A stretch of 60,474 nt of DNA, filler included, from Rhizaria sp. SCN 62-66 (GCA_001724265.1; 8 parts of 8 records of this genome joined end to end with filler, not necessarily neighbours in it); one strand, 5' to 3'; shown: positions 1,579-47,741, numbered from the whole stretch's first letter. Made by a program: numbers and translations. The notes: generated from the letters alone by a model not told the origin.

Positions 1579-2482
1579 CGAGGCGGGCCGTGGAGCTGGT
1601 TGCGTTCGAAGAGGGCTGTGCGCTGATGAGAGAGAGCGACGCTGAGGGAGCGGTGAGAGGGGAGACGTCGACAGCAATCAATGAGGTCGATTGAGCGATA
1701 GAACAGCGTAAGGGAGTAGGATAATCGCACAATGCACATATATCATTTAAAAAAGTCGATGTAAATGTCAGCCACCCTAACTAGTTCGTGAGTGAAGCTT
1801 TGCTACAGTGAACTGCATCAATAATTCAATGTAGCCATAGGAGGCATCATACTTTCGGGGTTATGCATGACGCCAGAATCTGAAGTGCACCGGCGCATAC
1901 CCCAGCGCCTCAAGATATATAGCAACAAGCACTACAATAAAAACATCTAACATGCGCGGTGAGCGCCGTGATCCCGTGAATATGCCAGTATGCGCAGCTA
2001 AATGAGGTGCATAAGGAGGATTAGGCGCATCAAAACGAGAGACACTAAGTCTGAATCAACTATGCCTCGGCAGCACCAATGCTTGACTGTCCCACGAATG
2101 TCAAAATAGAAATCTCAAGCAAACAAGTCTCGCACATAATGAGCACATGCGCTGTTTCTCAGTTACGGTGCATCATTCGAGATACCCTCAACTGAATGAC
2201 ATGCTCGGGGCATGCTCAGGCCAAGAGGCTGCCCGACTGAGGTTCCAGAGAGTAGCTTTTGAAACACTCTAGAACAGGACTTGGATCCGAGCCATGCACT
2301 TATAATAGCAAGCCCAAATATTAATGAAACTTATTGTCTATAATCTCTTTATTATATTATCTTAGTCAACGGTCTAACCTCTCCGCGACCTACATCACCG
2401 CACGGTGCTCGCTCCTCTCCCAGCCTTCCTCGCTACTTCCCCTTTGCAGTTCACCACCGGAGCTTCTCGTTTTCTGCCCGCA

Positions 2483-6664: not shown

Positions 6665-6764
6665 NNNNNNNNNNNNNNNNNNNNNNNNNNNNNNNNNNNN
6701 NNNNNNNNTTAATTAATTAANNNNNNNNNNNNNNNNNNNNNNNNNNNNNNNNNNNNNNNNNNNN
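6665..6764. other. Artificial contig spacer (N44-TTAATTAATTAA-N44); also at 13433-13532, 20137-20236, 26830-26929, 35772-35871, 47770-47869, 54139-54238
   Basis: Identical 100-nt N blocks with a six-frame stop linker. Confidence 0.98.
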
Positions 6765-7333: not shown

Positions 7334-9643
7334 TCACGCGTTGCCAATCTGCACCGTGCCCTGCTGCTGTGCAGACACGACGCCGCGGCGCCTGCGCTTA
7401 GCCGGCGCCTCTGCCGCGCTGCGGTCCGGCGGGGCCCATTGCAGACACGCCATGTCGACGCCCAACTCCGGCCCGCGTTGCCAGTGCTGCGCCAGCGTCT
7501 CGAGCTGCTTCGGCGTCGCAACGATCGCGTGCGTGCCGCGGTGGAAGCGGCTCAGGTTCAGGTCTTGTAAAGTGATGAGGGCGTCGTCGCTCGTGATGCC
7601 GGTTGCCTCGGACAGGGCCTTGAGGGACCAGCGCTGTGAACGCAGACGGGAAAACAACAACAATAAAAAAGAGTTGTTAGCATCGATCAATGATAAATTA
7701 GCAAACATATGCTTCAAGTTATTGAAAAAGAAATTGATTATGAACTGCCACTGGGTTTTAGCTGTGCGACGTACGTCAGGGGGCATGGCGGCGAGCGCGT
7801 TGACGAGCGTCTGCGACCAGAAGGAACGGTATGAAACCTTGCCCAGGTCAGAGAGCGGCTTCTCTGGACTGCCGGGGCGGCCCTCGAGGCGCGAGAGCGC
7901 GTACGAGAACGCGATCAAGAACTTGCCGTAGCCCTTGCGCTGGTGCTGCGGGAACGTGAGGATGCAGGCGAGGTTGTAGCCCTCGCTTGAGTCCTTTTCC
8001 TTGGAGAAAAAGCCCACGAGGTGGCACCCGTCGGCGTCCGTCTCAGTCAGCACGTAGAACATGAAGGGCGCGACGTCGAAAAAAAGCGTTTTGTGGTCGA
8101 TGTAGAGCTTGGCGAGCAGACACAGGCACTGGGCGTAGAGACGCTGCTCCGCACCGTCGATCTCGAACACCGAGATGTTGTCCTTACGGTAAATCTGCGC
8201 GTGTTGAAGCCAAAGCAACAAGAGTGAATAAAGTGTGATGATGTGCAAATGCAGTGAATAACTTGAGCGTCGACACAAGACTAAGATATGATATTCTGTT
8301 TCGCTCAGTCCGTGCTTTCAGCGTTGTTTCAAGTTATGATATTGCAAGTAAAGCTAGATAAAGTACGTACCTCGGTGCCCGGCGGGTGCCTGGGAGCGCA
8401 CGTGGCCGCGTGGCGGGCCAGCGTCTCCGGCTTCTTCATATACTTAAGGCACCACTCGCACACGTAGAGCTTAGGCAGGCCCGCAAACTCTGGTGGGTAC
8501 GGCGAGTAGTACCACGTGTCGACCTCCCAGGGCCCGATCTGCACGCAGTCGACTGTGCGCACCTTTGTCTGGTCCTCGCGGGCGCGCTCGAGCGCCGCGA
8601 CAACGGGGTCTGTCGGGTTCGCAGAGTCGTCTTGGACGAGCGCGCGGCGGTCGCGGCGAGTCGCCACGCGTGGGGTCGCCGGCTGTGAGAGACACATAGA
8701 AAAACAAAAACAAGAGGAAACCAATAAGAAGGTATGAGCAAGTGATGAGGTAAAGAAAAGTAGGACGGTACAAAGCAGAGAGCGGAAGTAAGTTATGTTC
8801 ATGATTTCACAAAGCACGCACCATAGCGCCTGCGCCGCCCGAGGCGCCCGCGTCGTCGCCCCACCCAGCGCCCGAGGCGCCGCTGCCTGCGACGGCGGTG
8901 CTCTGCCGCGACAGGTGGCCCGCGGCCAGCAGCGCCGCGCCGGGCGTGCCGGGCCCGTGCGAGGGCGAGTAAAGCATCTTCGGCGGTCCCTCAGCCTGCG
9001 CCGTCGCGTCGGTCGGAGCAAGGATGAGTTTGAACTCGAACTGGGACAGCCAGCGGTCCATGCGCCGGTTCGTGTCTTGGTAGTGCACGTAGTAGTCGAA
9101 TCCGCCATTCGCAGTCGCACTGGCAGTGCTGGCACTGCTGCTGCTGTCGGTCGCAGAGGCGGAGGCTGCGGGCGCGGCGGAAGGCGGCAGTGCGGGGGAC
9201 GAGGCGGCCGTCGTCGCAGCACCAGCAGCGGCGGCGGCGGCGGCGGTGGGGCCGAGCATAAGTGTGGCCGCGGCACCAGCGGCCGCTGCCATCGACGAGG
9301 ACGCGGACGCAGAAGCAGGGAGACCGGGGTAGGCTATGGAGCCAGCAGCAGCGGGTGTAGCCGCGGGGGACAGACGGAAGAAGCCCGCGCGCGCGCCGGT
9401 GGCGGGCGTGGGGGGCGGCATCATGTTGAAGCTGCTATTGGAGCTGGCGCCGCTGTTGACGACGATGGCGGCAACTGTGGGCGCAGTGAACTGGGCCGGG
9501 CGGCGCTCGATCACTTGTGCGAGCATCCATGTGCCGTTCTTGTGCAGGCCCCAGCCCTTGTCGCCGATGGCGAAGGCGCGCAGCGGCGCGCCAGACGCCG
9601 GGGCGGTCGTGGGGGAGGCCCCGAGTGCAATCGCAGGCTGCAT
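7334..9643 (-). CDS. ESA1: MYST histone acetyltransferase, Esa1/Tip60 type; exons 9643-8822, 8682-8371, 8194-7775, 7633-7334
   Basis: Chromo-barrel ([16 protein letters not shown]), C2HC zinc finger (WYYSPYP...[11 protein letters not shown]...HPPG), and MYST core ([58 protein letters not shown]). Three in-phase GT-AG introns. Stop is TGA. Confidence 0.93.
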
Positions 9644-11391
9644 CGGAAAACGAGTCAGCAGGGACCGCGGCTTGTCACTTTGAGGGCAAGCGAGGATGCT
9701 CAAGAGAAAGTTTGCGGGGTGAGATTGCTCTGGAAACCGCGTATAGAGTGACGAGACCTGTCCTTGTTCGTCTAGGTGACGGGGAGGGTTCTCGAAAGAA
9801 GAAAGAGCTAAGCGCGAAGATGGTCAAATTAGGCAAACGATTGTGAGCGATGTTATCCTCAAATAGCAATCAGGAATAGCATTTAAACAGAAAAAACAGC
9901 TTAATATTCCGGGATTCAATTCTGTTACGAAATATCGATCACATGTATCTCTTTCGTGATTTTTCGAAAGCACTTCTTGGGTTCGCGCTCACCTTGTTCG
10001 AGCTCGCCTGCAGCCATCCGACTCGAGAAAGTCACATGTGGCTGGAGCAACATCAGCGATATCTCTGTCAGATAATAATGGATCTAGACAATTTCTGACC
10101 ACAAGACATTATGCAATGTCTTATATTATATATTTTGCGTAGAAAGTTTGTAGCTTTTGTATTGTTAAGATATGACCACAGATCAGTTCCCACTATGCTT
10201 GCTACTCTCGAGTAAGTCACAGCTGCAAGACATCCGGAAACAAGAAGTTAGGATAACTCTCAGCGGATCCAAGTTGTTTACCGCATACGACACTAGATTC
10301 AGATGTATTTGAGCATTCATCATGTTATACGTGCGAGATATGGTCATGTGACAGCTTGCAGAATTCTTGTGATGATCGTTGGAGAGCTCGATCAGACTTT
10401 GCCGTAAGGCGTCATGGTGCTTTTATGCTAGAATTCTAATGTTCGGGTAATGTACCCGTAGCTTACGTTGTCTTTTCGTAACACTAATGCTGTTCTCATT
10501 CGCCCATGGCTGAGATTTCACCTAGATCAGCTTGTCCGTGCATTAAGGCAGCATTAACATCTGCGCTAAGCAAAGATAGTTTGCTGTCACATATAAAGGC
10601 GGTTGTTTTACGTTCATGTAAGAGCTCATAACTATTCACGCTTGCCTTTGGATTGTATCACGTAGTTTCTCTTACATGGTTTCAAGTCTAAGTTCGTCTT
10701 ACATAAGTCACGTTTATGACAGCAAATCAGGCTGAAAGTCAGTATATATTACTGCCCACAGTCTGTAAAATCATATTAAACGCAGTACATTACTTTTACT
10801 CGATATATTAATGTTATAGACCGCATATCACGTGGGAAAGTACTGCTTCAAGTTGTACTATGTTCACCTTTTTATTTGAAAACAGATTATATATCATGTT
10901 TTTGTCGCCATTGAAACAAACATTTCACAAAACAGGACAACAGTTTGAACGCTCTATCAAAATGAGTTGTTGTTGATATGTACAACGACTATATCTGTGA
11001 AACATCAGCAGAAGTATGTGGTGCCTTTTTTCGGTCCGACAGCGCGACCTTAATTTCGAAAAAATAATTTCGGGCCGACCGGCGAGCCGACTGGCGGGCC
11101 GAGTGCCGCAGACGAGGGAAGTGACAAGCAGGATCAGGCATCAAAGTGCTTCCGTGCCCTTACACGACCGCCGCTGCGTTCTATGCAGTGATTGGTGCCT
11201 TGCAGAGAAGTCATTCGGCTTTTTCTCAATTTGTGCTCTTGATCGGCGAGCGTCTTTCGTACCAAAAGATGCTTGCTCGGATGGTGGGTCGTTTAGCTCG
11301 GCCCGTCTCCACTTTGGGGCTTTTGTGGTCGTCGCAGAAGCCTTTCTCCGCCTTGCATCCGACTTTGCTCCCATCACGGGAGCTCAGCAGC

Positions 11392-13432: not shown

Positions 13433-13532
13433 NNNNNNNNNNNNNNNNNNNNNNNNNNNNNNNNNNNNNNNNNNNNTTAATTAATTAANNNNNNNNNNNN
13501 NNNNNNNNNNNNNNNNNNNNNNNNNNNNNNNN

Positions 13533-20136: not shown

Positions 20137-20236
20137 NNNNNNNNNNNNNNNNNNNNNNNNNNNNNNNNNNNNNNNNNNNNTTAATTAATTAANNNNNNNN
20201 NNNNNNNNNNNNNNNNNNNNNNNNNNNNNNNNNNNN

Positions 20237-23200
20237 ACCAGCACGGCCGCCATTACGTCCTACACGGCTGGCACCGGACTCACCAAGGTCACGTGCACGG
20301 TCAGCCGCAGCAGCGCGACTGTGGCCTCTGTGAGTGGCTGCGGCGCTGTGAGTGCCTCGTCAGCAAACTATTACGGACCGCGTGTGTTTCGTTTTGGCCC
20401 TGTCACCACGACGTATGCCGACTATTTATCAATGTTTAAGAGTTACAGCACAGCGCAAGGTGCTTTGGGCACAATCTCTGGGGTAAACGTGCCACAGCAA
20501 AACACAGATCAGTCCGACGACACCATCTCGGCCGCGAACTCCAAACCAAGCGCGGTGGTTGGTCTTTATTCGACGCTTGTTACAAGTGCAACGGTGACTG
20601 ACGCCACAACGCTTACGCCCACAGTCACGGGTACTACGAGGCAGGAGTACCTCGTGCGCGTATTCTTCTTTAAGCGTTTGTCGGCCACATTGACAACTGT
20701 GACATACAGCTATACGGGTGCGTCAGGCATGCTCACAAGCTCGTCAACGTCTGTTGGCTCATGCTCTAACTATGCTCAAGGCAGTATCAAATGCATTTCG
20801 TCGCTTTCACCGGCAATGTTCTTTTCGTTCTACACGGGAGCATACGCGGTTGCGTACGAAAAGACTTTCTTTGCGGCCGGCGAATTCACTTTTTCCATCG
20901 CCACTACTTATTCAACTGCCGGAGCTGACACAACAAGTATCTCTGCTTTTGTTGGCTCATCACTTGACGCGCCCATTACGTTCAACCCGCCATTTGAGTT
21001 CACGACTGTACTGACAGAGATCTCCTGGGCGAGTACGGATTTGACTGCCAAGATCCACTTGTACTTGTTCCCGCATACGAGCGAGCTCAGCGCGCACAAC
21101 GTGCTGCTGCAGAACAACTGTGGTGTTTTCAGCACAGGCAAGCCAGTTGCGCTTATCAATAGTCTGGCAACAGGCGCGTGTGTCTCTCGTTACAGCAGTG
21201 GCTTTGATCAGATGTCGATGCCCGCGACATGCATGCCCGCGCAGCCAAAGTTTATCGGCTTCCAGATTGAAGCGGCGTACTTTCTAAAGGCTGTGCATAA
21301 AACTGCGTATGCTGCGACGGGGCTAATTCCCGCTTCGTGCTTCACGCTTGTGGATCCAATCACCTTGGTTTCTGTAACAGCACTTCACAATGCTGCAATC
21401 GGGGCTGTGCCACCGCCTAACGCGTTCATGTACGACGTATTACTTGCGCGCAGCTCGATTTCCTCCCAACAGCGTGCGCGTGTTGACATCCGCACGGTGC
21501 TTATGGTGCCTATTACCGCGACGTCAGTCAATGTTGTTGTCGCTGTTTCAAACTCAACAATCAATAACTGCCCCGTTGGACTTACAATTACATCGTCCGC
21601 CGCGTTCTACGCTCTTGGCTCTAGTTGTACACGCACATCGGCTGCTGCCAGTGAGCTTATTGCCACCTGCACCGGCGGCCCCTGGGGCAACAAACACGTC
21701 TTTGCGTTTGCCTTTGAGCATCTCATCTTCCCAACGAGCACTAACAATGTTGACAAAACGCCATACTTAGGTCCAGGCTGTATTACTGTGAAGATGGCGT
21801 ATGATTTAGTCACGCTGACCGGCACTCCTATGATGCCAGTATGGTCGCGCCCGCTTTTGACTGCTGAGCTTGACCGCACACTGAGCACAGATCCGACTCA
21901 GGGCGCAACTTACCATCTCAGTGTTGACCTGGGTGATGAAAACTTTGTGTCCACTACCAATGACTTTTCTTTCTTTGTTCTCCTACGCGGCTTTAGTGGC
22001 CTTGCTTTCTACACTCAAACTGGCTTTACGACTACAAATAAGATTACCTGGAAAGTGGCTTCGCCAGTATCTGATGCTGTTGAATTTGGTCCAAACACGC
22101 CTACATCCGCCACAGGTGTGTGTTTGCCGACCTCGCCGTGCACCGTGCGCATTCCTGTCACAGCCAACTTTGCTGGCACAGTTCCTCTGTTTACGTCTGT
22201 GAGCGTGTATGTTAAGGAGACCTCCACGGGCCTGACGCGGCCCTACGCCACGGCCCCTGTGCGCATGCCTGCCGGTGTTATTCGGCAACAACTCTCGCCT
22301 CCAGCAATGCCCTTCACCGCAACAGCGTTTAAAGTCACTGCGACTGCTGCATCACCTTTAACGCGTACATTCTCAATCACCCTTGTTGACACTACTGCGA
22401 TTAATGTCGCTGTTGTCCAGTACTGGGTGGTGCAGCTGCCACTAACTGGCTTCACTTACAGCGGTTCAACGTACACGCTTAAAATTGGCACTGGCTCCAC
22501 GTCTTCTGCAGTGTCAGTGTCGACTAGTGGACAGGTTACGATTCCGTACATCAGCTCCATGATTGGCATTGACGTTTTGATTACCGTGAGCAGCGTGACT
22601 CTGACACTCGTCGAGACTCCAGAGGTTGTTACGATTGCATTAGAGCATTACTTGATGCGTAATACGCTTACGGCTAACTCCACGCAACTGAACCGTGCTG
22701 TGACTCTTGGCTATAGCGCACTTCAACAAGATACGCGCTCCACGTACACAGTTTTGACCAACACCTTCAGTGCCGGGACGAAGCCTGTATACGCGACCGC
22801 GGACTGCGCCATGGTTCTTGGACAGGCGCGCTACCAGATGAAGTGCACTGTGGCGTGGGCCGGACTGGTCGACATCACGCCCAGCATGACCCTCGCACTC
22901 GTGACACGTGCCGCCTCACCGCACACCACGCCCAGCGACGTGCGGCTCGAGAGTACGAGGCGCATTAGTCCAACGCCTATGTCCTCGGCGTGCACGCCAG
23001 CGACAGTAGGCGCTGCAATTGCGCTGAGCAGCTGTCTTGCCAACGGGTACTCCGCGCTCACTCTCGAAGTGCTCGTTTCGGCGACAAGCTTCCTCGTCGA
23101 ACAACAGCTTGAAATCGAACTGCGCTCTGGCATCGCACGCCGCGCTGTTGCACAGATGCGCCCACCGTTGGGTGTGATTGCGCTGACAGGAGTGGATCCT

Positions 23201-26200
23201 GTCTTCACAGCCGCGTCTTCAACTTCGCACAACGGACTTCTTGTGATGAAGCCCGTGCTGTCGTATTATGCGAGCACAATTTCTAATGCCATGTTTGCGG
23301 AGATCGAAGTTGTGGGTGGCCGCTTTGCAGCGCGCTTTGTAGCAAATGCAAGCACAGGTACGACAGCCGTTACATTCAACAGCTGTGCTGTGGAATGTGA
23401 GCTGAACAGCCTCATCTTCCCCAACGTATCTTACTCCATTATTTGCCCCATCTCCGGCTGCACTTTGCCTACGTCTGGTGAAACTACGGTTTCCGTGACA
23501 AGCGGCTTTGTGCCCGGTCCCGCAACCGAAGAGCGTGCTGTCCTGCGGCTCTCAATTGCTGCAACTGTGGTCGGCCCCGGTGACCGGCGCGTGCTGTATA
23601 GCGGGCTCTTCAACGCCCCGCGCGGCACGCTGACTGGAGGCGACACTTCTATTGGTACCGATGCAGGTTCTGCTGGAGCTTTTGCGCGCACGGTTGTCCA
23701 CACACTGACACCTGCGACCACGTTATGCAACGGCGGTGACATTGTGCTTGACACTGGAGAGTATTTCCGTCTTATGCCGCCACTGTCTGCGCACACCAAC
23801 ATGGCCTGGGAATCATTGGCCGCCGCGTAGTACACTTGGAGCTCGCCTGATTTCGCTACCAGTGGTGCAACCGCGGTGGCGCTAACTGTAACAGTTTCGA
23901 GCAAGCAGCGTTGGATTATCTTGCGCCCGCAGACCGAAAGCCGTGCCTACTGCTTTGCGGGGCGTCGGTCAAGCCTTATTTCCACTCTGCCCATTGCCAT
24001 TCCCATGATGGCGTTGGAGAGTTTTACTGTGGAAATTCTCTCCCGAGGCGGACTTGTTCGCTACGGGCACTTGGCACGAATGACGTTACTGCCCGACACA
24101 GAACTGCCTGCTGAGCTCTCACTGAGCTCGCGCGCACAAGGTGACTACTCCGCGGTGGGATACGTCAAGATCAACATCACTGAGCTCAGTGTTGGACAGG
24201 TTAAAGAAGCTCGCTTCTCACTGACTATGGGTTCGGCGTGCAACTACTTCCCCGTGGTGGGCACGAAAACTTTGATTGTGTCTGATAACGTTGTGCTTGT
24301 GGACAATCCAAGCAGTGTGTTGCTGTTCAAGACGCCTGTTGTTGACACACTTGAGTTTTACATCAAAGCCACTTCGATTCCTGTTGTAGCTTACATCCCC
24401 GGTGTGTTTTGCTCCTCCTCAGCAGACACTGCGGTCACTCTCGCGGCATACTTCGGCACGAGTGCTGCCGTTGTAATGAGCAAGACGTCGACGTTGCCTG
24501 TCGCGGCGCCTATCCCCAAGACACAAGTTGCAATGTACGCGATGCACCTTGACGGCAAGTTTGCAACAACCGCTGGTGCAATGAGGCCGCTTGTCGTGGG
24601 TATTGCCGGCTACTCTTTCAGCGATAAGTTCGATATGTCGTTTATTGTGCTCCCGGCACTTGGTATCCCTGCGGGATACTATCTTTCGCTCATTGTGCCT
24701 TGGGTGACAACCGGAGCGTTCACTGTATCCGTCCTTGACTCCGCGCATGCTGCCGTCGCCAACACTTTCCAGACTCTGGTCCCGGCCGAGCGGCGCGTGT
24801 CGGTACAGTTCATCAAAGGCTGGCCCGCGGATACACCTCTGATCATTGTGCACAGCGGTTCGTCTGTTGACCCTACTGTCACGTCGCGCGACGTCACAGC
24901 CAAGATCACGCTCAATCTCGACAGCATGTCGAGCAATATTCTTGAGCAGGGGACCGGCACAGTGTCTCTTCGCTCTGACTGGTTCAAAACGCTAACGTCA
25001 AGCGTCACTATCGCGCCGACTGCTCTTGGCAGCGGATATGCACGCGGTGTGTCACTTACGGTTACCTTCCGCGCTCCCGCTGCAACATACATTGCGGAGT
25101 CGCCAAATCCACTGTCGGTATTGCTCGTGCTGTTCCCCACTATCACGGTTGCTTCTGACCCTGCGCATGAGAGCGCCAAGTTTATCTTCTCGAACGCCGG
25201 TAGCACAACGCTGCAGTGCGGGTCACTCGCTGTCAAGACCCTTGCAACATCGCGTAAGTTTGAACGGTACGCAAGCGCGTTGTCTGCTGATGGTACGACG
25301 GTTACGTACGCCCCTGGCTTCCGCGTTGAGCTCGAGTATCAGGCCGCTGCAATCAATGACAACTGCGTTCTTACCGTCACGCACCTCCACGCGAGTAACG
25401 CTTACTACCGCGATGCTCTTGCTTTGGTCACGAAGGCTACGGTGACTCTGCTCTCTGGTGCAAGCGCGACTGTGCTCAATAGCTTTTACTACAGCACTTC
25501 AGCGGCTGCAGTTACCACAACCGGGCTTGTGAAGACAAACGTTCTTCCAACATCTTGGGCACAGATCCTCCCATTGTCACCCTTGTCCTTTAATTCGACA
25601 TCTGCGCTGCGCTTCTTGTCTGCAGGAAACGAGCTCTCGGTGATGGGACCTCAAGCCTTCTTCTACTCTGCTGCAAACGCGCGTAATGACTATGGCTTCG
25701 CTGGACTTGGAGACGTGTTTTCTATTGCTTTACGCATGCAGATCAAGACTGCACCAACTTCTGCGACCGCTGTTTGCTTTTCATTACCTGTTGGGACTAA
25801 CTCGAGCGCAACGTCTATTACACTGTACATTGACGGTCAGTCTGTGTCGTTGCCTGTTTCCGTTGCTGTGAGCTCGACCGTCTGTCCTGCAGAGTTGCAC
25901 GATTTGTTAACGACCTTTGATGCAGTTTCGTTTATGGCGGACAACGCGTCTCGCGCCGATTTGCTTCGTGCTGTGCTGCCGACGCAGTGTGTCTGTACCA
26001 ATACGGCGACGCTTCCTGCAGCTCTAAAGCAAACTGACTCTGTACTGACTGTAGTCATCTCTGCTGTCAATTTTATGCCCTCACTTCCAGCGGATGCCGT
26101 TGAATCACTGCGCATGTCTCCGCTCACCATGATTGCACCTGTCGCCAGCGTCAATGACTCGCTAGTCACTGTTGCCGCACCTGCAGTTTCTGTCAGCGCT

Positions 26201-26829
26201 ATTCCGCCGCGCAACCGCATCTTCCCGCGCGGCTTCCACCTTGGTGATCCGCTGACGCCATTCACTGATCTCGCGCAAGTCTCTGCCGTTGCAGCTACAC
26301 CAAGCATGTCTGTCATGTATGCTGTCGCCTCTGATGGACTGTACTTTGCCGCGCCCCGTGTGACCGTCTTGGCAACAACACCGACAGCTTATGTGTCTCC
26401 TCAGATCAACACACCTGTTGCTTGGAAGAAGCTCACGACCGTTAGCAGTGGTCGGGCATCACTTACCGTTGCGCCCGACGACACAACCGTCGTCATCAAC
26501 TCCAACAACAAGTTGTTGACAATCATTGAAACATCATACGACGACACGATTACTACAACCGATATTCCGTTGCCTTCAATGGACAAGCAACCACTTTTCC
26601 CGTTTACGGTCGCTAACCAAGCACCGCTTTTTGCTCCCATTATCCTCGGATGGCAAGCACGCAGCAGCTATACGGCGAGTACGCCCACAGCAACGGTAGT
26701 GCTTCCCGTGGGTAATGCTCTCTATGTTTTTAGCTTTACCTCAGAAGGACAATCCAAGCTTTTGCGCACTGAGTATCCTCTTGGCGAGACGAGCACGATT
26801 ACGGCCGTTGCATCCTCTCACTCTGCGCT
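20237..26829 (+). CDS. Very large Ser/Thr-rich, beta-strand-rich (surface-like) protein; internal fragment of about 2197 codons with one in-frame TAG at 23828-23830
   Basis: ORFs 20321-23830 and 23876-26881 share a frame. The whole contig is open in that frame apart from one TAG, and composition is similar on both sides. Confidence 0.8.
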
Positions 26830-26929
26830 NNNNNNNNNNNNNNNNNNNNNNNNNNNNNNNNNNNNNNNNNNNNTTAATTAATTAANNNNNNNNNNNNNNN
26901 NNNNNNNNNNNNNNNNNNNNNNNNNNNNN

Positions 26930-28399
26930 AGTGCGACTGAAGACTACGACTTGAAGACACTCACAGAGGCATGCCTCGAGTATGGCGTGTTCGACTGGCT
27001 TTTGCAGTCGCTAGAGTACTGTGGAGACGCGGACGAGCCTGAACGCACCAAGGAGACACTGTGGGTTTTTACTAACCTCGCCGTTTCCTCCGAGGGTTGC
27101 ACCGTGCTGCTAGAACGCGGTGTCACGGAGAAGCTCTGCTGTGTGCTTCGCCCTGGCCAGCCCGACGACATCGTCGAGAACGCGCTCTGGGCGCTGGGTA
27201 ACATCGCCGGCGAGAACCGCGCTGCCGTCGAGTCGCTGATCGAGCGTGGTGTCTTTGCACACGTCTGCCGCTATCTGACAGAGGTATTTGAGGGAACTTT
27301 CCAGGTTCGCGTCGCTGTTCACAAGGTTCTCAGTTGGACAATTAGCAATTTCCTCCGCGTCAAGCCACCGCTGCCGTTTCGTATGGCGATGCCGATCTTA
27401 CCCCAGCTCTTTCATGCACTGCGTTCATTTGCCTCGCTTCAAAACTTGTCTGAAGCTCTTACGGACACGTTGTGGTCAATTAGTTATGTGTTTCGCGAAG
27501 AGAGTGAGGGTGTGATCTTCGACTACCTTTTCGCCAATAACAACGAAATTTTTTTGCTGATGCTTGCACAGCTGCACGGTAGCCGAATGAACCGTGCGCC
27601 AGCGCTGCGCCTTGTCGGCAACGTCGCCGCGCTCGATGGCGGCACATCCACGCGCGTGTTCACGGCGCCCGCGCTGCAGCACCTACAGCGGCTTGCTGCA
27701 ACTATCGCACCTACTGATAATGGTGCGATTAAGGAGCTGTTCTGGACACTCTCGAACTTGTTGGCCGAGGGGCCAACGATTGTGTCGCGCGTGCTCGAGT
27801 CGAACGTGCTGCAGACGCTCATCCCGCGCGTGTCCCCGCCGCCATGCAACGGCGTTGTCAAGTCAATCGTGTGGTCTAACGCGAGCGAAATGTCGTGGGT
27901 GCTGTACAATGTGATGACTGAGTCCCGTGAAAACGATGGCGGCCGGGCTACTGCGGCACTGGCGCTGCTTGACTCCGGCGCGCTTCACTACTGCGCACAG
28001 ACGCTGACCGCTGCCTCCTTACTATCGTCACCGCCGCCCAGTGGGTTGCTAAATCGCCTCTTGCGGGCGGTGCGCCTTATGATTGAGGTCGGTGGCCCTC
28101 ACGACGACACCGAGGACGCCGAGATGCGAAACGTGTTCCTCGCAGCCTTCTTAGCGGCAGGTGGCCGAAACGCACTTATTGATCTGATCCAGAATGAAGC
28201 ATCCAGTGTCGACGCATTGGATGAGGCAATGCAGCTTCTACAGGGATGTGGAGAGGGCTCTGCGTCACAGCCAGCGCAGGAGAGCGGTGACGCCGACGCG
28301 GGCCGCGACAACAATGCACAGGAGAACAACAACGCCGAGCCGAGTGACGAGACGATCGCGAGCAATGGCAAGGATACTCCCTCAGATGTCCCTGAGTAA
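26930..28399 (+). CDS. Divergent importin-alpha-like armadillo-repeat protein, 5' truncated
   Basis: ARM repeats with the W-x-x-x-N groove pattern: ETLWVFTNLA, ENALWALGNIAGE, WTISNFLRVKPP, DTLWSISY, PALRLVGNV, KELFWTLSNLLAEG, SEMSWVLYNV. Stop is TAA. Confidence 0.85.
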   Translation, partial: SATEDYDLKTLTEACLEYGVFDWLLQSLEYCGDADEPERTKETLWVFTNLAVSSEGCTVLLERGVTEKLCCVLRPGQPDDIVENALWALGNIAGENRAAVESLIERGVFAHVCRYLTEVFEGTFQVRVAVHKVLSWTISNFLRVKPPLPFRMAMPILPQLFHALRSFASLQNLSEALTDTLWSISYVFREESEGVIFDYLFANNNEIFLLMLAQLHGSRMNRAPALRLVGNVAALDGGTSTRVFTAPALQHLQRLAATIAPTDNGAIKELFWTLSNLLAEGPTIVSRVLESNVLQTLIPRVSPPPCNGVVKSIVWSNASEMSWVLYNVMTESRENDGGRATAALALLDSGALHYCAQTLTAASLLSSPPPSGLLNRLLRAVRLMIEVGGPHDDTEDAEMRNVFLAAFLAAGGRNALIDLIQNEASSVDALDEAMQLLQGCGEGSASQPAQESGDADAGRDNNAQENNNAEPSDETIASNGKDTPSDVPE

Positions 28400-29037: not shown

Positions 29038-29109
29038 TCTCTGATAGTATAGTGGCTAGTATTCCTCCCTGTCACGGAGGAGACCCGGGTTCAATTCCCG
29101 GTCAGAGAG
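29038..29109 (+). tRNA. trnD: tRNA-Asp(GTC)
   Basis: Acceptor stem TCTCTGA/TCAGAGA, D arm TAGTATAGTGG, anticodon stem CCTCC/GGAGG with loop CTGTCAC, T arm CCGGGTTCAATTCCCGG, discriminator G, and a downstream T-run terminator. Confidence 0.97.
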
Positions 29110-29509
29110 CTTTCTTTTTGCGTTTTCCGCGCATGGCATGGTCAAGCCGCGCACACTATTTTTTTTTTTGTTTCTGCATGAGGCCGGGTGGCGTTTTGAT
29201 TCAAAATAAACTCTAGTATATTTGAACCAAAATATATCAGAGACTCTTTCATCGCAGAATGACATGTTGTGACGCACGACATTTTACATAAAAAAGCATG
29301 TGAGACGGTGACGAAGACGGCCCGCGGTGTATTCCCCTCGCTGTGTCCAAAGGTGGTGTTTCTGTGTTCAAAAGTGGTGTTTCTTGTGTAAATGATAAGC
29401 ATTTAAATACATATAATTCGAATCGTTTCTCTGTGGATTTCCTGTGAGAGAGTCCCTTAAAATCTCGCGCGTAACACATGTTCCTCTTTTATGATGTGTT
29501 CACCAACAG

Positions 29510-30000: not shown

Positions 30001-31085
30001 TTCTCTGTGGCGTAATGTGCAGATCCTCCGCCTCTGCTTCAGAGTGAGGCGGCGACTCTGATCATGGAAAATATTCCACAAACAACGCATATTTCAAGTT
30101 GCTTAAATCAAAATAGTACAAATACAAGTTACGATAAAACGACTCCGCACAATTATATTGACCCATAAAGATAATGTTAACTTAATGAGATCTCCATGAC
30201 TATTAGATGTAGTTCATTCAGTGGCGAAGTTTCTGGGACATATACTAGTATTAATATCATCTGAGCTAAACAATTTTTGACAGAACCAGGGGAGCTGAAG
30301 GATCATACCTATTGTTCGGAAAGACTGCGCAGAGTCATTATGCTTAATACTATCTACATATTATTCATCAATAGCATAGGCACTTTCTATGGCAGCAATG
30401 GCGCTATGGGTGCGGGGAGAGTACCGTATTCCACAGGGACAAGCAACCCCACAAGGAAACCAACATTCAAAACAAGTAGATCCACATACTTATAGTACAG
30501 TGATAGGATGTGGAGTTTGCTGGCGTTGCTTGTGTTGTGTTTGACTGTGTCAAAGTCGCGTACGGGATGCCGAGGCCCGAGGGGGAGCACAGGCGATGCA
30601 CTGGCGAGACTGAGTTACCAGTTAGAAGTTCGAAGAGGAATATGATGCGAGGGGCTGAGAATCAGAAAGTGACTTTACTGCGTCTGATTGTCGTTGAATC
30701 GGCCAATATTTATTTTGCTACCACACAAAGCTATATGGTTATTTCATTTTTATTTGTAAAGGGAGTCTAACTCGTTTGAGCTCATGGATATACTTGCTTT
30801 TGCGAATTGCCCTTCTCTTCAAGCAGCCTGTTTCTCGGCTCTTTTCGGGACAGCGCCCTCTTTGACACAGTGAGTGTTCCCCTACAAACTAGGCCCAGCT
30901 AACTTTTTGAGTCTTGTATTACGTCTTGGCGCTCTTTGGTGGCTCTAAAATCCCCTTTGACGTCGCAGAGACGACCCCCTCCGAACCCGAAGGCGACGGT
31001 GGCAAAGTTGAGGGACTTCAGCCGCACTTGGTGCGTCCCGCCACCTTCTCCACGCCGGCCAACGGTTCTGCTGACCCCGCAAGGC

Positions 31086-34000
31086 ATGAGATCTCCCACG
31101 CGGCCACTTTTACCGCGTGTGGCGGGTGTACTTCAAGCGCTTGCGCTTGCCGTACTAGTCTCTGTCGTGGCCGCGCAGTTACCCCTTATTACGGAGGTTA
31201 CCTCTCCACCCGCGGGCGTAGCTTGGGGAGCAAAGTGCGGTGGTAAGAGTGGACCCTTGATCCATCACAGCCAGTCGTCAGACTACGCCGCCGAGTTGCG
31301 CGCGGACCTGTTCCAGCCCGGCGATGCGGACACCAACATCGACTCCTGGCTCACAACGGACTCGCACTGCACTGACCCTTTCTCGATTGTTCCCACCTTG
31401 TCTTTCGTCAACGTCTCCTCATTCACCGCGTCCCCTGCGCTCGTCCAGGCCTCCGTTATCTCAACTAACCCGGACGCCTGGTTTAGCGACACTGTGTTTG
31501 CGATCGAGGGCACTGTGGTGACGTTCTTGTGCTGGCACAAGGCCGTGCCGGACCTCTTCGTGTTTACCGAGGAGCCCTCGTACTTCGGCGACGAGCCTGA
31601 CGGCACCGGCAGCGCGCAACAGGACGGCGCAGAGAGTCTGGACCCCGTTGACGTGACAAATGACCCCGACACCGACACCGACACCGACAAAAACATCGAT
31701 GCTAGCACCACCGACGGTCTCGACGGCACATTGGACACGATTCTCAACACAGAGTCGGGATCCGCGCTGACCGACGGCGACGGCGCGGCTTCTGAGCCCG
31801 CGCCCGAGCCCGAGGCGAGCTACGTCAATCTCACCACCCTTCTGCCGGGCACCTCGCTCATCCCCGCGCTGCCCGCAGCCCCCACGGCCACGGTCACATC
31901 CGCGGACCTCGGCACGACGATCGCGCTCACGTGTCGCCGCGGCCGCTGGCACACGCGCACGCACCTGCGCGAGGCTCCCAGTGCCGCCGCGCCCACAGTT
32001 CCCGGCGCCGCCAAGGTCAACACTGTGGCGACGCGGCCCGTCGTGCTCGCGCGCTGCCCCGCGCAGTGCGCCCCGCATCCGCTGGCGCGCGCGCTGCCGC
32101 CCCACATGCGGCTGCACTACTCGCGCTACGCCGTGGCGTCCGCGGACCAGGGTGTGCTGCCGCCGCCTATCCTTGGCTCGGCCCGCTCGAGTCCCACCCT
32201 GATCGCCGTGCTCGCCGCGGCCGCCGCGGCGGTTGACGGCAAGCTCGACGGCATCAGCGCCGAGGACCTGCCGGGCGTCGGCGGCGGGCTCATTGACGGC
32301 CCGCGCACGTTCGCCGACGGCGTGTTTGCGCATTTTGCCTGCCGCAACGCCGCCACGTCGAACACCACGACGCGACCGCTGGCGACCTACCAGTGCCACG
32401 CCTCGGCCACGGGCCCCGGCGAGTGGCGTCTCGTCTGGTCCTCGGTGCCAGCGATCGTGCCCGCGTCCGTCGGCACCGAGCCCGCCGCTGAGGCCGTCGA
32501 GGCGTTCGCGGAGTCACTTCCCCAGAGCGTGCCGACAGCGCACGCGCGCTCACACCTGATCATGTGTGCCATGTGCCTGCCCGTCGTCTGCGACGGGTTC
32601 CCCGACACGTACACGTCGACCGTGGGGCTGTTGACAACATACTCGCAGCCGCCGTTGTTTCCCGGAGCGCAGCCGCAGCACTTAGCGTCGTCGCTGAGCG
32701 AGACGCGCCAGCTGCCGTTCCGCGGCCGCCGGTTCCCGTCTGGCACGGTCGTGAGCTTCTCGTGCCCGCTGGGCGGCCTGCCTGTGCCGCAGAGCACCCT
32801 GTCCGCAGTACCGGCCGCGACGCAGTTCGAGTGCCGCGCGCTGCGCACAGGCGCGACGCAGCCGCGCGCGTTCGGCGACACGTGGTGCGGATACAGCGAC
32901 ATCGACTGCGGCACGACGCCCACGACGCCGTTCGCGCCCGGCATGGCCCCGGCCGCGCAGGTCGCCGTGGCGGCCGCCATCGACGCCACCGCGGCCGTGC
33001 AGGCCGGTTTTCGCCGCGGCGCGTGGGTCGCTGTGGAGACGAACCAGACGCTCGGCAACGGCGTCGGCCTTCCGCTGTGCGTGCCGAGCGAGTGCCTGCA
33101 CTTGCCGCAGTGGGCGAAGCCCAAGTCGTCGCTGCTGCAGGCCATCACCATCTCGGCGTACTCGGCCTCGACCTCGGGGCTCAGGACGGAGCTGACGACG
33201 GTGTGCCCGAATCACTACACGTCGACGACGCCGGCCCTGGGCGCCACGGGCTCCCTATCGTGCGTCGACGGCGTGTGGACGGCTGAGGGCATTGGGTGCC
33301 GCCCCGACACGGTCTGCGTGCTGCCGATGCACCAGGCCGCAGCGACGCGGCTTCGCTTCCTCACGCTGCCCGTGCTCGACCTGCCCAAGGTCGCCGCTGT
33401 GGATGGCCAGCGCGACTCGATGGCGCTGCCGTGGCGAGACGCCGACGAGACGCACTACCCGGTCGGCGCGGCGCTGCAGCAGTCGTGCAGCAGCGCCGGC
33501 GAGTTCCCTAACGTCAACGGCGCCGGGGTTATCTGGCGCTCGTGCGGTCGCGGGGCATACCGTCTTGACCCGCTGCGGGCGACAGAAGTGGACGATTACA
33601 GCGGTCAAAGCACATTTCCTGATAAAGACGGTGATAGTACGCTCGAGCTGGTGCCTTATTGGAACAACGTCACTTTGAGCTCTCAGCAAGTGTGTGCGCC
33701 TGCCGAGTGTCCGTCAATCGCCGGTCTGCGCTGGGCCGGGTACGACCCCGTGAGCCAGTTGCAGTACGTTTTCGACGCCAGCACCGCCACGACGCCCGTG
33801 CCGCCCGCGATGGGCAGCAGCATTACTCTTTATTGCACGGAGCCCGGATACGAGTCCGTGTCATCCCACACGTGCAACGCCACGGCGCGGTGGGTGCCTC
33901 CGCTGCTGAAGGATCTGGCCGGTGCAGACACACTTGCACCGTGCCCGCGCCGGTCCTGCTGGCTCCCGCTGCAGCTTGCCAGCTGCGGCTCGCTCCAGTC

Positions 34001-35771
34001 CGAGGGCGCTATTGTCACGCTCTCCGGCGCTTCGGCTGCCATAGTGACTGAGAAGGTCTTCAATGGCAATGCTGTGGTTGATCAGAGCGATCCGAAGGCG
34101 CCGCAGGTTGGCGATACGCTTGGCAGGCTTGATGACCCCCGTCTGCCGGTCAAAGTCGCTCCAGGGACTACGGCCACCGCGACCTGCAAGCCGGGCTTTG
34201 CGGCCGTTGATCAGTACGGCGCAGCACTGGGGACGCTGACGGTTACGGACACGTGCTCTGACACTGTTCAGTCTGTGACTGGGCTGACCTTTGCTAAGTG
34301 GACGTCGTTTGCGACTGTACCCACCAAAGTGCCTGCCTACACTGGCAATGTGCCGCCTGACGCGATTGCGAGCGTGGCGATGAAACACTTCTACTGCGAG
34401 CCCGCGCTGTGTCCTGTGATGACTATCGCGCTCGCGCGCCAGCTGCTGATGCTGCCGGGCGCGGACGAGATTGACTTCTCGCTTGAAAGCTACCAGCTCA
34501 CGTACCCGACTCCGTCTCTGGTCACCGGTGTCGGAAGCGTCCGCGTCGGTGCGCGCGCGTACTTGCGCTGCGCTCCGGGCTACGTGCCTGTTTCGGCGTT
34601 TGAGACTGAGGGCGTCCCTGCGCTCTATAACAGCGAGGGCGTGGTTGCTGCTCAGTGCATGCAGTCTGAGTCTGGCTCTCCAGCCAAGTGGAGGCGCATC
34701 AACGCGAGTACTGACGCGTCTGCCAACGAGGCGTGGACTGAAGGCAATGTTATGACTTCGTCCGTGGTCTCCGAGTCAATGCTGCTGTGCGAGAAGCTGC
34801 ATCCTCGCTGCTCGAGCGATAATGGGTTAACAGGCAACTACCGTTATACCTTCGGGCCGCCCAGCTCGTTTAACGCAAGTGAAAAGGACCCGGCGCCGTT
34901 CCAGCACTACAACTCCGTCATGGTTGTCAAGTGCAAGCGCCGCTTCATTCCCGCGGCCTCGCGGTTCACCTGCAACGCCGCCGGCGAGTGGGTCGGCACT
35001 CTGCCGACGTGCGTCGCCGTGGAGTGCGGTAAACTGCCCCTGGTTACATACTCTGGACTGCGGATCAGCGCGGTGCAGCTCCTTGAGGACGGCACTGCTC
35101 CCGATCCGATGCTTGGCATTCCCACGGGAGTTGGCTGGTCGTACATGTACTTAGTCAACAGTTGGCCCTATGGCGTGCACATGTACTACATGTGCCCGAC
35201 GACTTCGCACCAAAACTGGGCGCGCTTTACGACGCCCGATGTGAACAAACACGTTAACTTCACTTGCGAGCACGACGGTGTCTCTAGTTACGGCAACTGG
35301 ACAAAGACCAAGGCACAGATTGATGCCGAGCTGTCTTGCGTCACCACAGTGTGCGAGGACATTGCCGGGTCTCTGCAGGGCTACGTTACGTCCTTGCAGC
35401 AGCCTAGTGGCTCGAACGTGTCATACCCTGCGGTCAACTCGCGCATCACACTGCAGTGCCCCGCTGGGACTTACGGCGGCCAGTCGTACCTCGTTTGCGC
35501 TGCCGACGGCTCCTGGCGCGGTGAGCCCCCGAACTGCACATCGCGCGCGTCTTGCCCCGCTTTAGCGCTTGACAGCATGACTTCACAGCCCTTGCCAGTT
35601 GCACAAGGTGGCGAGACGCTGACGCCTCAGTTTGTGCAAGTTACGCTTTTCACTGACGCGATCAACATCACCGGCGGCATTCTTCATAGTGATAGCATTG
35701 ACCCTGCGACTGTGGGCAGCTTTGAGATGGGCACTGTCGCGCGCTACTCCTGCGCTACAGACGCGCCGACA
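31086..35771 (+). CDS. Large secreted/surface protein with multiple Sushi (CCP/SCR)-like modules, 3' truncated
   Basis: Signal peptide (VLQALALAVLVSVVAA), then repeated C..C..W..C modules such as VVKCKRRFIPAASRFTCNAAGEWVGTLPTC and ITLQCPAGTYGGQSYLVCAADGSWRGEPPNC. Confidence 0.85.
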
Positions 35772-35871
35772 NNNNNNNNNNNNNNNNNNNNNNNNNNNNN
35801 NNNNNNNNNNNNNNNTTAATTAATTAANNNNNNNNNNNNNNNNNNNNNNNNNNNNNNNNNNNNNNNNNNNN

Positions 35872-42223: not shown

Positions 42224-45200
42224 TTTTTGTTGTCGGCGGTGTAAATGGCGGCCTCCAGCGCCCGCGCGGCGGCCACGCAAAGCGCCAGGTAGCGACTAAG
42301 TCCGCTGTCACCGTCGCCGTCACCGTCGGCAGAGTACATGAATGCGATACGAGAACCAGAGCTAGAGCCAGAGTCTGAGCCTGCATAAGCGCCAGAGGCA
42401 GCGGCAGTGACACGGCTGTCGGGCTGAGGGGCGAGGCTTGAGGTAGAGCTCGCGTAAGTGCTTCCGGGGACGTTGTAAGGGGCTGCCAACGCAGCCTCAC
42501 TCAGCACTTCCTCCTCGCCCCTTACCCCGGCCTTGCGGCTGCGAGCCGCGGGCCCCACATCGTGACTATTGGGGGGCAACGAGTTCCCCGCCTCGTTGCT
42601 ATGGAGCAGCGCATCGAGGTCGTAGTCAAGCAAGGCCCAGTCGTCGCTGCTCCGGCTGCCACTGAGGTCGCCGTTGCCGTCCGTGCCAGTGACCAGCGGA
42701 GCAGAGGCCCGCATCAGAGCGACGATCTCTGCAACACCGCTGAACACCCCTGCCTTCGCACTCGCACTGCCGCCGCCCACGCTGCCGCTGTCGCCGTAGC
42801 CGCCGCGACCAAGGCTGCGCGTGGCCAGCGCCGCCAGCGCGGCCGCGCGCGCCGCCGCGCCGCGGCGCCCGCCCGCGCCAGCTCCAGCGCGGCGGGCGGC
42901 GGAAGGCCGCGCGCTCGGTGGTGCGCCAGGAGAGCGCGCGCCGCCCGCGCCGCCACGGCCGAGCCGCCGAGCCCGCCGGCGCGCGCGCGCGAGCCGAGCG
43001 CGGCGGTGGAGGGCGCGGCGGGCGGCAGCAGGCGCAGGCCGGCGAGGGCGCCGAGACGCGCGAGCAGCGGCAGGAACCCCGCCATCGCCATCGCGAAGGG
43101 TTGGCGGGGCGGGGGGGCGTTGGGGGGCGGAGAAGCTAATGGACAGCTTAATGAAGCAAGTAAGTTGCTGGTGTTGTTTGAGTTATTGCTGCTGCTGCTG
43201 CTGCTGCTGTTGCTCGTTAATAGAGCTAGGAGACGTCCAGTTTGCTGGTCAACGTCACTTTCGCTATAGCACTGCTGCTGCGACAGGGTTTGCACAGATG
43301 TTGCTGATGCTGCTGTTGTTGTTGTTGGCGGCAGCAGCGAGCTGTACGCCACTGTCGGGGCGCTGCTGCCGTCGCGCCGAGCAACCACAGCGGCGGCATT
43401 CGCAAAGCGAGTACTGTTTTTCGCCCCATGTGCCGCTGTTGCAGCCCCAGGCCCAGGCCCAGTCCCGGCCTCAGCCTCAGAGTCGAACTCAAAGTCCAGC
43501 TCTTGCTCAAGCTCGAGCTCTAGCTCGGAGCCGGGGACCCAGAACCGGGCCCAGTCGCCGTCGCGAAAGCGTTCACAGTCACTCAGACACGGCTGCTCAC
43601 GGTCACTCGGAGCCCCGCCACTCGCTTTGCTCTTACGTTTGCCATCTTTGCCCTTGCCTATGCTCTGGGACTGAGTGATCGCGTGGCCGACGCTGAAATG
43701 GTTGTCGGTGCTGCCAGGGCCGCCGCCGCTGCAGCCGGTCGCGACCACCCACCCCGAGCCCAGCGACTGTGAGCCCTGTGCCCGTGAGCCGTACATCAGC
43801 GACTGCGACAGCGAGACGCCAGTACCGCCCCCACTGCTGCTGCTGCTGCTGCTGCTGCTAGTGCTATTGGAATTCACAACATTGCCGAGCGACTCTGCAC
43901 TGGCGGGCTGCGGCAGGCGCCACCACGGCCCCCACAGAGGCGGGGCCGGGTCACGGGCGAGCGCACTCACTGCTGCGGATACAGCAGCGGCAGCAGCGGC
44001 AGTCGCGGCGGAAACGCTGCTGCTCTTGCCTGTTGGAGCAGCAGCAGTCGCTGTTGCTGGCGTCGACGCCGGTTGCCTCGCCCGCCCCAACAGCCGCCCT
44101 TGCCCCTGCCCTTGCTGCTGCTGCTGTTGCAGTTGCTGTGCCTTGCCGCTCGTAGCCGTTTTTGCAGCAGGTCTCGCGCCGCTGGCAGTCGCCGTCGCCG
44201 TCGCGAGCGCCGCCACCGCGGCCACCGCCGCGGCCGCGCGCGCGGCCCACCGCCGCGCCCCCAGCGCCTGCGCGGGCCACAGCAACAGCGCCGGGGCCAG
44301 GACGCGAGACTGCGACTGCCAGGGCGACTGCGGCTGCAACTGCGATTTAGCAGTGATAGCTGTCGTAGAGTGAGCGCGTCCAACGGCGAACAGCAGCTGC
44401 GCGTAGGCCGCCGCCAGCGCTGGCCGCGACAGCTCACGCAGCCCCGGTCCAGCTCCAGCGCCAGTCACGCTTACGCTGGCGCCCGCGCCCGCGCCCGCGC
44501 CCGCGCTGTTGAGGTCGCCGGTGGCGGTGCGGCGCGCGGCGAGCGCGGCGGTGAGCCGAGCCCTGTCGCCGACACTGATGCCGGTGCCGGCAAGCCCCAG
44601 CTCCACGAGCCTGGCTGCAGCGTCTGCAACGACGCTGTGGCCGCCGCCGCTGCCGCTGCCACCGGGGTTCGAGAGCGCGAGCAGCAGCAGCAGCAGCCGG
44701 GGCGCGGCGGCGGCGGCGCGCGGCGACAGCGGGCAGTCGTCGAGCGAAAGCACACGCAGGCGGGAAAGTAAGCCGCAGGCGCGGGAAGTCAAGCCGCCGC
44801 GTTGCAGTCCCTGCTGTTGTCCTTGTTGCTGGTGATACAGATTCAAGCCAAGCGCAGAGGCGATGAGTTTCACGGCTTTGACCGAGCGGATGCCGGTGTC
44901 GTCGAGCAGCAGACGGCGCAGCGCCAGCGGCGGCGACTGATAGAGCGATTGCGATTGCGGGCAGGAGCAGGCTGACTGAGACCGCGACTGCGGCGGCTGT
45001 GGCTCCAAGAGCGACTGCGGGTACTGCGAATGCAAGCGAGGCTGTGCCTTAGAGCTCTTCAGCGCACTACCTTGTTGGCCAACACTGCTCGAGCCAGCTG
45101 GCTGGGAGCCAGCGTGCTGGCACTTGCACGTGCGCCTGGGGTACTTAGCCACAGATCTAAGTAGCCACGCAAGCCCCCGACCTCGCAGACCCGGATTCTC

Positions 45201-47000: not shown

Positions 47001-47741
47001 GATTCATGCAAGAAGTCCGAAATCTGGGTCGCAGAGGTGTGAAAAAGAGTGGTGAGCGAGCTGTTTCTAACGGATAGTTCAAATGTAAAAGCAAGGATAT
47101 CACAACCAAAAGTCCGTCAGTAGAAATTAAAGTGTCACAATACAGTGAAAAATTGCGTCTAATTTGTACTATTTCACTTATAAATGCACAAAACAAAAGG
47201 CATGCGGTCGTGTTAGAGCTTTTTGTGAGTTTTTGATGGAGACTTGTGCTCACGGTCATTGCAGGTTAAGCCGCCTGGCTGGGCGGTTACTCGCTTGGTT
47301 TGTCGGGTCGAGCCATTTTTGTTAGTTGTTGTATCTGTCTTTACAAGCGCCTTTGCGAAGCTGAATTTGAGATAAAGATATCAAACAAGCTTAGTTTGAT
47401 CTATGTTCAAATTTTTGCATCAAAGCTTTCTCAAATTCATGTGCATTTTCGAAGGCAAGAAAAATCGCTCGTTAGTTTTGGCGTCGAACCTCGATTCTGG
47501 GTCTTTAGAGCATCTTGATTGCATGTCCCCTCGTGATGTGTCATCGACATTTAAGAGCTGATAACTCCCCATGGTTTTATTTCTAACATGCAGTTGTCGT
47601 TTTACGATTCAGCGACTCGTGTTGTCCGCAAATTTGAATTCTGTGAATGGGCATTGCTCTAACCGTCACTTGCTGGTCTCTCTTTAACAGTCTTTACTCA
47701 CACTCCTTTCCACCTGTTCTATCTTTTCTTTCTCCAAACGT

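Follow-up and report, generated by a model that had tools for sequence, protein, structure and literature searches.

UAA and UAG have nearly always been reassigned jointly in nuclear genomes. According to the accessible text of a 2024 overview, a UAG uncoupled from UAA encodes Leu, Gln or Ser, and Glu is recorded only in combination with UAA as Lys (PMC11687900). In the available parts of the original reports, Rhizaria sp. exLh (Sainouroidea) reads UAG as Leu and uses UAA and UGA as stops (PMC5304391), and UAG is Gln or Leu beside a UAA stop in Iotanema spirale, phyllopharyngean ciliates and Protocruzia tuzeti (PMC5304391, PMC11687900). Glu is assigned to UAG in Oligohymenophorea sp. PL0344, in which UAA is Lys and UGA the sole stop (PMC10553269), and to both UAR codons in peritrich ciliates and Blastocrithidia (PMC11687900, PMC12153298), again as given in the accessible portions of these papers. 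A literature search, with most subscription journals and bioRxiv supplements lying outside it, returned neither a published code with UAG as Glu next to UAA and UGA stops nor another rhizarian nuclear code, and the accessible text of 2026 papers on Cercozoa and Rhizaria contains no nuclear code change.

Here we analysed a stretch of 60,474 nucleotides (the window) from the assembly Rhizaria sp. SCN 62-66 (GCA_001724265.1) together with the complete set of 714 contigs (34.9 Mb) of the same genome. We propose, with a probability of about 0.7, a nuclear code in which UAG would be translated as Glu and UAA and UGA would remain stops.

Results

A lone in-frame TAG in a gene for a giant protein

The window consists of eight contigs and seven artificial spacers of 100 bases (44 N, TTAATTAATTAA, 44 N) at positions 6665-6764, 13433-13532, 20137-20236, 26830-26929, 35772-35871, 47770-47869 and 54139-54238. 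These spacers join unrelated contigs, and adjacency within the window therefore does not reflect adjacency in the genome. Apart from the two genes treated below, we annotated a DEAD-box helicase (2378-4561), a MYST acetyltransferase (7334-9823), an ARM-repeat protein (26930-28399), a tRNA-Asp(GTC) (29038-29110), a Sushi-repeat protein (30903-35771), an LRR protein (42714-47003), an RRM protein (49316-50317) and a TPR protein (50874-51842).

Positions 20237-26829 form a single contig of 6,593 bp with N spacers on both sides (C616 of genome set G000). Its frame 1 on the plus strand encodes the middle part of a giant protein and is open at both contig ends. As noted in the first-pass annotation, the 2,197 codons of this frame include no TAA, no TGA and a single TAG. 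The remaining five frames contain 50-160 stops each, and about 79 stops were predicted for the open frame from base composition alone. Read as a sense codon, the TAG (23828-23830; context GCC GCG TAG TAC ACT TGG) specifies residue 1198. Public gene callers cut the protein at this codon into two entries, P0367 and P0368.

Sequence data other than the assembly also support the base call of the TAG. In the public runs X2 and X3, a DNA contig covers 23509-24319 with 0 differences. Both runs gave identical tables despite different listed samples and studies; they are probably one data set filed twice and hence not independent of each other, and they may represent the source sample of the assembly. 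A contig from an RNA library (X5) covers 23713-23943 without gaps and with one difference, the position of which may include 23828, and a diverged contig from run X4 covers 23158-24797, likewise ungapped, with 22 differences whose positions may include 23828. In view of these other assemblies and of the genome-wide TAG pattern described below, a sequencing error or a nonsense allele was rejected as a general explanation. A 36-nt intron (GTAGTA...ACCAG; 23827-23862, plus strand), which had been named as a competing possibility, did not hold either. The segment is coding: its 12 codons are conserved at the protein level in 4/4 paralogs compared, and the RNA-library contig spans it without a gap. 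Introns observed in the genome are AT-rich, longer than 100 nt and start with GTACG, GTATG or GTCCG.

The C616 protein is very large, rich in Thr, Ala, Ser and Val, and part of a multigene family. A family search retrieved 13 matches distributed over 11 contigs, the longest open frame among them having 8,748 codons (family contigs C707, C704, C693, C518, C556, C68, C547, C295, C141 and C363 of G000). The match in C363 contains a TGA, and that in C295 is divided between two frames. No Pfam match to the protein was found, only 6 matches were obtained among 1.84 billion representatives, and the family is without clear outside relatives. An AlphaFold model of 451 residues had a mean pLDDT of 65.8, and its structure matches were only generic Ig-like ones (TM about 0.2). 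Tandem beta-sandwich (Ig-like) domains are predicted from this model, and the protein may act at the cell surface. Residue 1198 is located at a helix-strand junction within a modelled domain (block pLDDT 84).

Alignment of paralogs across the site, suggested earlier as a check, revealed CAG, CAG, CAG, CAA and GAA (Q, Q, Q, Q, E) opposite the TAG in five close paralogs, and the TAG appears to be derived from CAG or GAG. Comparison of C616 with C707 yielded 179, 133 and 569 differences at codon positions 1, 2 and 3 in the 1,193 codons before the TAG, and 144, 97 and 418 in the 1,000 codons after it. Three further paralogs likewise displayed a third-position excess on both sides, and purifying selection looks equal upstream and downstream of the TAG. 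A change from CAG to TAG would be a tolerated Gln-to-Glu replacement at this position, where one paralog has Glu, which indicates that the gene is intact. The first-pass annotation did not propose a residue for the TAG; taken alone, the residues facing it, mostly Gln, would point to the less likely answer.

The second TAG reported for the window is real and lies in a gene for the GPI transamidase subunit PIG-S (57448-59958, plus strand), which terminates in TGA. The read-through product matches PF10510 with an E value of 1.3e-29 (residues 613-861), and the TAG (59392-59394, followed by CCC; residue 683 of P0002) is inside this match. The Pfam profile scored 25.8 bits with Glu and 25.8 bits with Gln at this position. 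PIG-S comprises about 835 residues and has long Ala-rich insertions relative to the 514-position Pfam model.

Behaviour of TAG, TAA and TGA across the genome

A coding model was trained on stop-free ORFs from 131 stretches of the own genome (787 kb, overlapping loci included). Each stop counted was preceded by 100 coding-like codons, and 40 coding-like codons after it were scored as continuation. Coding-like sequence continued after 14 of 30 TAGs, and the frame stayed open for at least 100 codons after 25 of them. In contrast, none of 116 TAA (63) and TGA (53) codons was followed by coding-like sequence and 9 of them stayed open for at least 100 codons (Fisher p = 1e-11 and 5e-16, respectively). 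GC content dropped from about 0.67 to 0.46 across TAA and TGA and from 0.72 to 0.65 across TAG. Four TAGs with clearly non-coding DNA after them were situated just inside introns. None of the 30 TAGs after coding-like sequence looked terminal in the 787-kb sample, which is about 2% of the genome, so that rare terminal UAG may occur outside it. UAA and UGA still terminate genes: the eRF1 and ubiquitin genes stop at TAA and the PIG-S gene at TGA.

Exonic in-frame TAGs were present in the genes for eRF1, PIG-S, MLH1, Ubc6, a MORN protein and a PARP zinc finger and in five kinase domains. Among 142 kinase matches there were nine lone TAGs, four of which are intron acceptors. Single TAGs in kinesin and DEAD (eIF4A) matches are splice acceptors as well; the 'stops inside' counts of the family searches (54 kinesin and 43 DEAD matches) overcount in-frame TAG. 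Twenty ABC matches were free of TAG. The dynein motor regions (L205-L212, L223, L224) are mostly intron-free. No exonic TAG occurred in 28,608 codons of dynein heavy chains (about 1,800 Glu codons), so that the dynein paralogs provide no residue evidence. The giant family contained 8 exonic TAGs in 25,114 codons, compared with 597 GAG and GAA. UAG is a very rare codon.

A purine (G or A) came next after 89 of the 116 TAA and TGA codons. After exonic TAG a purine was found in 15 of 43, compared with 58% after codons overall; these 43 sites comprise the 30 strict ones minus 9 (intronic, antisense or doubtful) plus 22 hand-picked exonic ones. No common downstream sequence was detected after the TAGs, in line with the earlier proposal of a general code change rather than a programmed readthrough motif. 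The view that C616 carries one gene read through UAG is backed by the genome-wide stop counts and by the eRF1 TAG and the tRNA(CUA) described below. It is almost certain that the nuclear code of this organism treats UAG as sense.

A tRNA with a CUA anticodon

A single-copy tRNA(CUA) gene was located by a loose pattern search on the minus strand of contig C84 (76008-76080; L094:309-381), which also bears a kinase gene and a kinesin gene. The tRNA scored 58 bits in Rfam, has a short variable loop and no encoded CCA, and its gene is followed by a T-run. It is identical to the organism's tRNA-Glu(CUC) at 47 of 73 positions, compared with 31 of 72 for tRNA-Gln(CUG) and 24 of 72 for tRNA-Gln(UUG). 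The acceptor-stem pattern TCCC...GGGA is found in ten tRNAs, namely eight Glu(CUC), one Glu(UUC) and the tRNA(CUA), and the closest E. coli tRNAs are tRNA-Glu. These similarities suggest that the tRNA(CUA) was derived from a tRNA-Glu. No tRNA-Gln(CUA) was seen in the genome, where BLAST with tRNA-Gln(CUG) retrieved only its five exact copies. A UUA-anticodon pattern gave 17 matches in the genome and 17 in the control, counted at the level of the pattern, and a tRNA(UUA) is probably absent. Because only 63 of 506 candidates were scored in the Rfam tRNA search, our tRNA lists are lower bounds.

The D-arm and T-arm of the tRNA(CUA) had at least 120 bacterial matches, and 80 of the 80 examined were Glu(CUC) or Glu(UUC). 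The 20-base D-arm is identical to that of many bacterial tRNA-Glu, and the acceptor stem is host-like; none of the 80 bacterial tRNA-Glu sharing the D-arm starts with TCCC. A bacterial or viral tRNA combining this D-arm with a CUA anticodon was not found. The bacterial-type D-arm may have been acquired by transfer or by convergence.

An in-frame TAG and altered motifs in eRF1

The only eRF1 gene copy found (contig C63; L037:1117-1827, minus strand) contains an in-frame TAG in domain 1 at the position of human Glu107. The same TAG is carried by an identical metagenome contig (L165), the only such contig in a metagenome scan in which none of 32 loci was a close relative. In 120 eRF1 homologues the corresponding residue is Glu in 109, Asp in 10, Val in 1 and Gln in 0. 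By eye, Guttulinopsis and exLh also have Glu at this position in the alignment available. The nearest relative, P0006, has Val, so that position 107 is relaxed in this lineage. The TAG precedes the rare Lys codon AAA in a gene that is otherwise strongly codon-biased.

Near the stop-reading motifs we observed the exchanges T32S, G57S, T58K, L126M and K130Q, which occur in 0, 0, 1, 7 and 0 of the 120 homologues, respectively; T32 and G57 are invariant among them. E55, L69, Y125 and N129 are unchanged. According to the accessible parts of the structural and functional literature, Thr32 touches the third stop base (PMC4605324, PMC5304391), a T32S exchange leaves termination by human eRF1 normal at UAA, UAG and UGA, and for UAG the residues E55, Y125 and N129 are important in the human protein (PMC3632111). 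Judged by eye from the available supplement 6 of PMC5304391, G57S is present in 14 of 22 sequences with UAR as Gln, mostly from related ciliates, and in 0 of 26 standard-code sequences. Since T32S is neutral in the human factor and E55, Y125 and N129 are kept, we only infer that this eRF1 recognises UAG poorly.

The residue inserted at UAG

Thirteen TAGs from two gene families could be aligned with paralogs, one TAG without an aligned paralog being left out. The facing columns were all Glu at five sites, Glu and Gln at two, all Gln at one, Glu/Asp-containing at one, Gln-containing at one and other at three. For comparison, an all-Glu column was found opposite 297 of 608 true Glu codons and opposite 11 of 573 true Gln codons. 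Over the 13 sites the log-likelihood was -25.1 for Glu, -35.6 for Gln, -42.7 for Lys and -68.7 for Leu. Orthologues of MLH1 and Ubc6 have R, D or S opposite the TAG. Scoring of residue substitutions with Pfam was too blunt to separate Glu from Gln, the differences amounting to -0.8 to +0.7 bits at nine of ten sites matched under both readings; at the tenth (MLH1) the TAG is outside the match. Leu received the lowest Pfam score at four of five sites where it was tried. UAG as Leu, the exLh type, was rejected on the log-likelihood given above and on the tRNA(CUA), whose body is of the Glu type and whose variable loop is short. On balance, the paralog columns and the tRNA make Glu the probable meaning of UAG.

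Lineage of the organism

A FastTree phylogeny of dynein heavy chains, a single gene with one named rhizarian (39 of the 121 sequences available; 1,703 columns), grouped the organism with the cercozoan Mataza sp. and others with a support of 1.000, stramenopiles and alveolates being placed apart. The introns are canonical, the proteins divergent and the dynein heavy chains about 11 in number, features that suggest a long-branch flagellate; the organism is probably a flagellated, Cercozoa-like rhizarian. Homologue searches with HSP90 and eRF1 gave no placement, the best-matching sequences either lacking a species name or being about 70% identical. The eRF1 residues M34V, T99E, F114V and L188P are common to Guttulinopsis vulgaris (by eye, in the available alignment), and each is found in one to three of 120 other homologues; these are hints of a membership in Sainouroidea.

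Ubiquitin patterns revealed no polyubiquitin junction, the site of the rhizarian insertion. Ubiquitin monomers begin with MSMQIFVK, which is only suggestive for Rhizaria. The monomers (L197-L204) are unusually divergent; two residues extend the N-terminus and three form a tail, and several copies are located at contig ends. Public runs containing the organism are labelled bioreactor, wastewater and activated sludge.

Discussion

If UAG is translated as Glu, the tRNA(CUA) would be a Pol III transcript and a substrate of glutamyl-tRNA synthetase, and an eRF1 altered around its stop-reading motifs would be poor at UAG. UAA would stay a stop because the CUA anticodon pairs with UAG and not with UAA, and UAG would be rare because it is served by one tRNA gene. 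With both other stop codons retained, such an assignment would add a new variant to the known nuclear codes, and Rhizaria would then contain two different reassignments of UAG. The genome, the tRNA gene and the altered eRF1 are all in hand, the organism recurs in bioreactor and activated-sludge samples, and the testable question is opened of how eRF1 loses UAG yet retains UAA. A natural eukaryotic amber suppressor together with a UAG-poor eRF1 would be useful for genetic code expansion. Moreover, public protein sets already mis-split genes of this organism.

The reassignment might also be only partway. A tRNA-Glu(CUA), possibly with a D-arm gained by transfer, would then compete with an eRF1 that has retained part of its activity on UAG, and the UAG within the stop-reading domain of the eRF1 gene would act as negative feedback on the eRF1 level. 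In bacteria the internal stop of RF2 serves such feedback on the factor's own level. Hints in this direction are the TAG-AAA context in the biased eRF1 gene, the few purines after TAG and the TAG-free dyneins. We consider this scenario unlikely; if it holds, the organism would be a eukaryote whose release factor regulates itself and a present-day example of an 'ambiguous intermediate'.

Ambiguity in a wider sense, with Glu and Gln both inserted or with the tRNA(CUA) acting against a partly terminating eRF1, appears unlikely as well. It would fit the lack of TAG in 28,608 dynein codons as against 8 exonic ones in the giant family, a single tRNA(CUA) gene as against eight for Glu(CUC), and the retention of the residues that matter for UAG in human eRF1. 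The scarcity of purines after TAG (15/43) would also be expected, as the base after real stops is mostly a purine. However, 0 of 30 TAGs look terminal, and codon bias and descent from CAG account for the rarity and the bias of the following base as well. In the accessible text on the rhizarian exLh, UAG is likewise described as rare in highly expressed genes (PMC5304391).

A purely Gln-encoding UAG, known from Iotanema spirale and two phyllopharyngean ciliates, ranks next and is improbable. Glutaminyl-tRNA synthetase would have to accept the Glu-like tRNA(CUA), unless a tRNA-Gln(CUA) gene escaped the search. In favour of this reading, mischarging by GlnRS is common among amber suppressors. The Q, Q, Q, Q, E column at 23828 agrees with Gln, and so do several TAGs that sit within Gln runs and a TAG in a ubiquitin-like domain at a position where the genome's ubiquitin has CAG. 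Furthermore, the following base resembles CAG more than GAG, a pyrimidine being found after 65% of exonic TAGs (n=43), 69% of CAG and 48% of GAG codons (p = 0.018). Against this stand the all-Glu columns at 5 of 13 TAGs, as opposed to 11 of 573 true Gln codons, and the eRF1 column with 0 of 120 Gln. The body of the tRNA(CUA) is of the Glu type, and the tRNA-Gln(CUG) search recovered five exact copies only. As TAG would often have arisen from CAG at tolerant sites, Gln contexts would be expected under either code, and both they and the CAG-like following base would fit a UAG that encodes Glu.

That UAG has a meaning other than Glu, Gln or an ambiguous or leaky one is very unlikely. The standard code, with the TAG as a nonsense mutation in a redundant paralog, a sequencing error or a small intron, is largely refuted already and hardly credible. 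The gene family is redundant, CAG to TAG is a single transition, the distant paralog matches in C363 and C295 are interrupted by a TGA or split between frames, and many TAGs in domains are intron acceptors (four of the nine lone kinase cases, kinesin, eIF4A). Nevertheless, this explanation does not cover the in-frame TAGs in PIG-S, MLH1, Ubc6 and the only eRF1 copy found, nor does it agree with 0 of 116 TAA and TGA behaving likewise, with a cognate tRNA, with selection that looks equal on either side of the TAG at 23828, or with the TAG sites in other assemblies. Least probable of all are pyrrolysine, suggested by the label 'Pyl' that ARAGORN gave the tRNA(CUA) from its anticodon but contradicted by a canonical Glu-type tRNA body and by 0 matches to PylRS (TIGR02367) in a genome that may be incomplete (one match over cut-off in a Methanosarcina-containing control), and readthrough at programmed sites only, against which the missing shared downstream sequence speaks.

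Among the described codes, as far as their reports are accessible, exLh is similar in that only UAG is reassigned; it belongs to the same supergroup and possibly the same clade. The rarity of UAG in highly expressed exLh genes is a further likeness (PMC5304391). Unlike the present organism, in which L69 is kept, exLh has L69A in eRF1, and its tRNA(CUA) is only predicted, as no genome is available (PMC5304391), whereas the gene was found here. Iotanema and the ciliates with a UAA stop share the uncoupling of UAG from UAA but are unrelated lineages in which the residue is not Glu; eRF1 Thr32 is altered both in Iotanema (T32G) and here (T32S), according to the available data. PL0344 resembles the code proposed here in reading UAG as Glu by a tRNA(CUA) that is closest to tRNA-Glu (PMC10553269), but has ten such genes compared with one found here, where UAA is still a common stop. 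Peritrichs and Blastocrithidia use Glu, the probable residue here, but both UAA and UAG are reassigned, whereas 0 of 63 TAA continue here. With TAA as a frequent stop, the code is not one of the UAR=Glu type. Since the residue would differ from that of exLh and Iotanema, and UAA is kept unlike in PL0344, peritrichs and Blastocrithidia, the code proposed here would belong to neither group.
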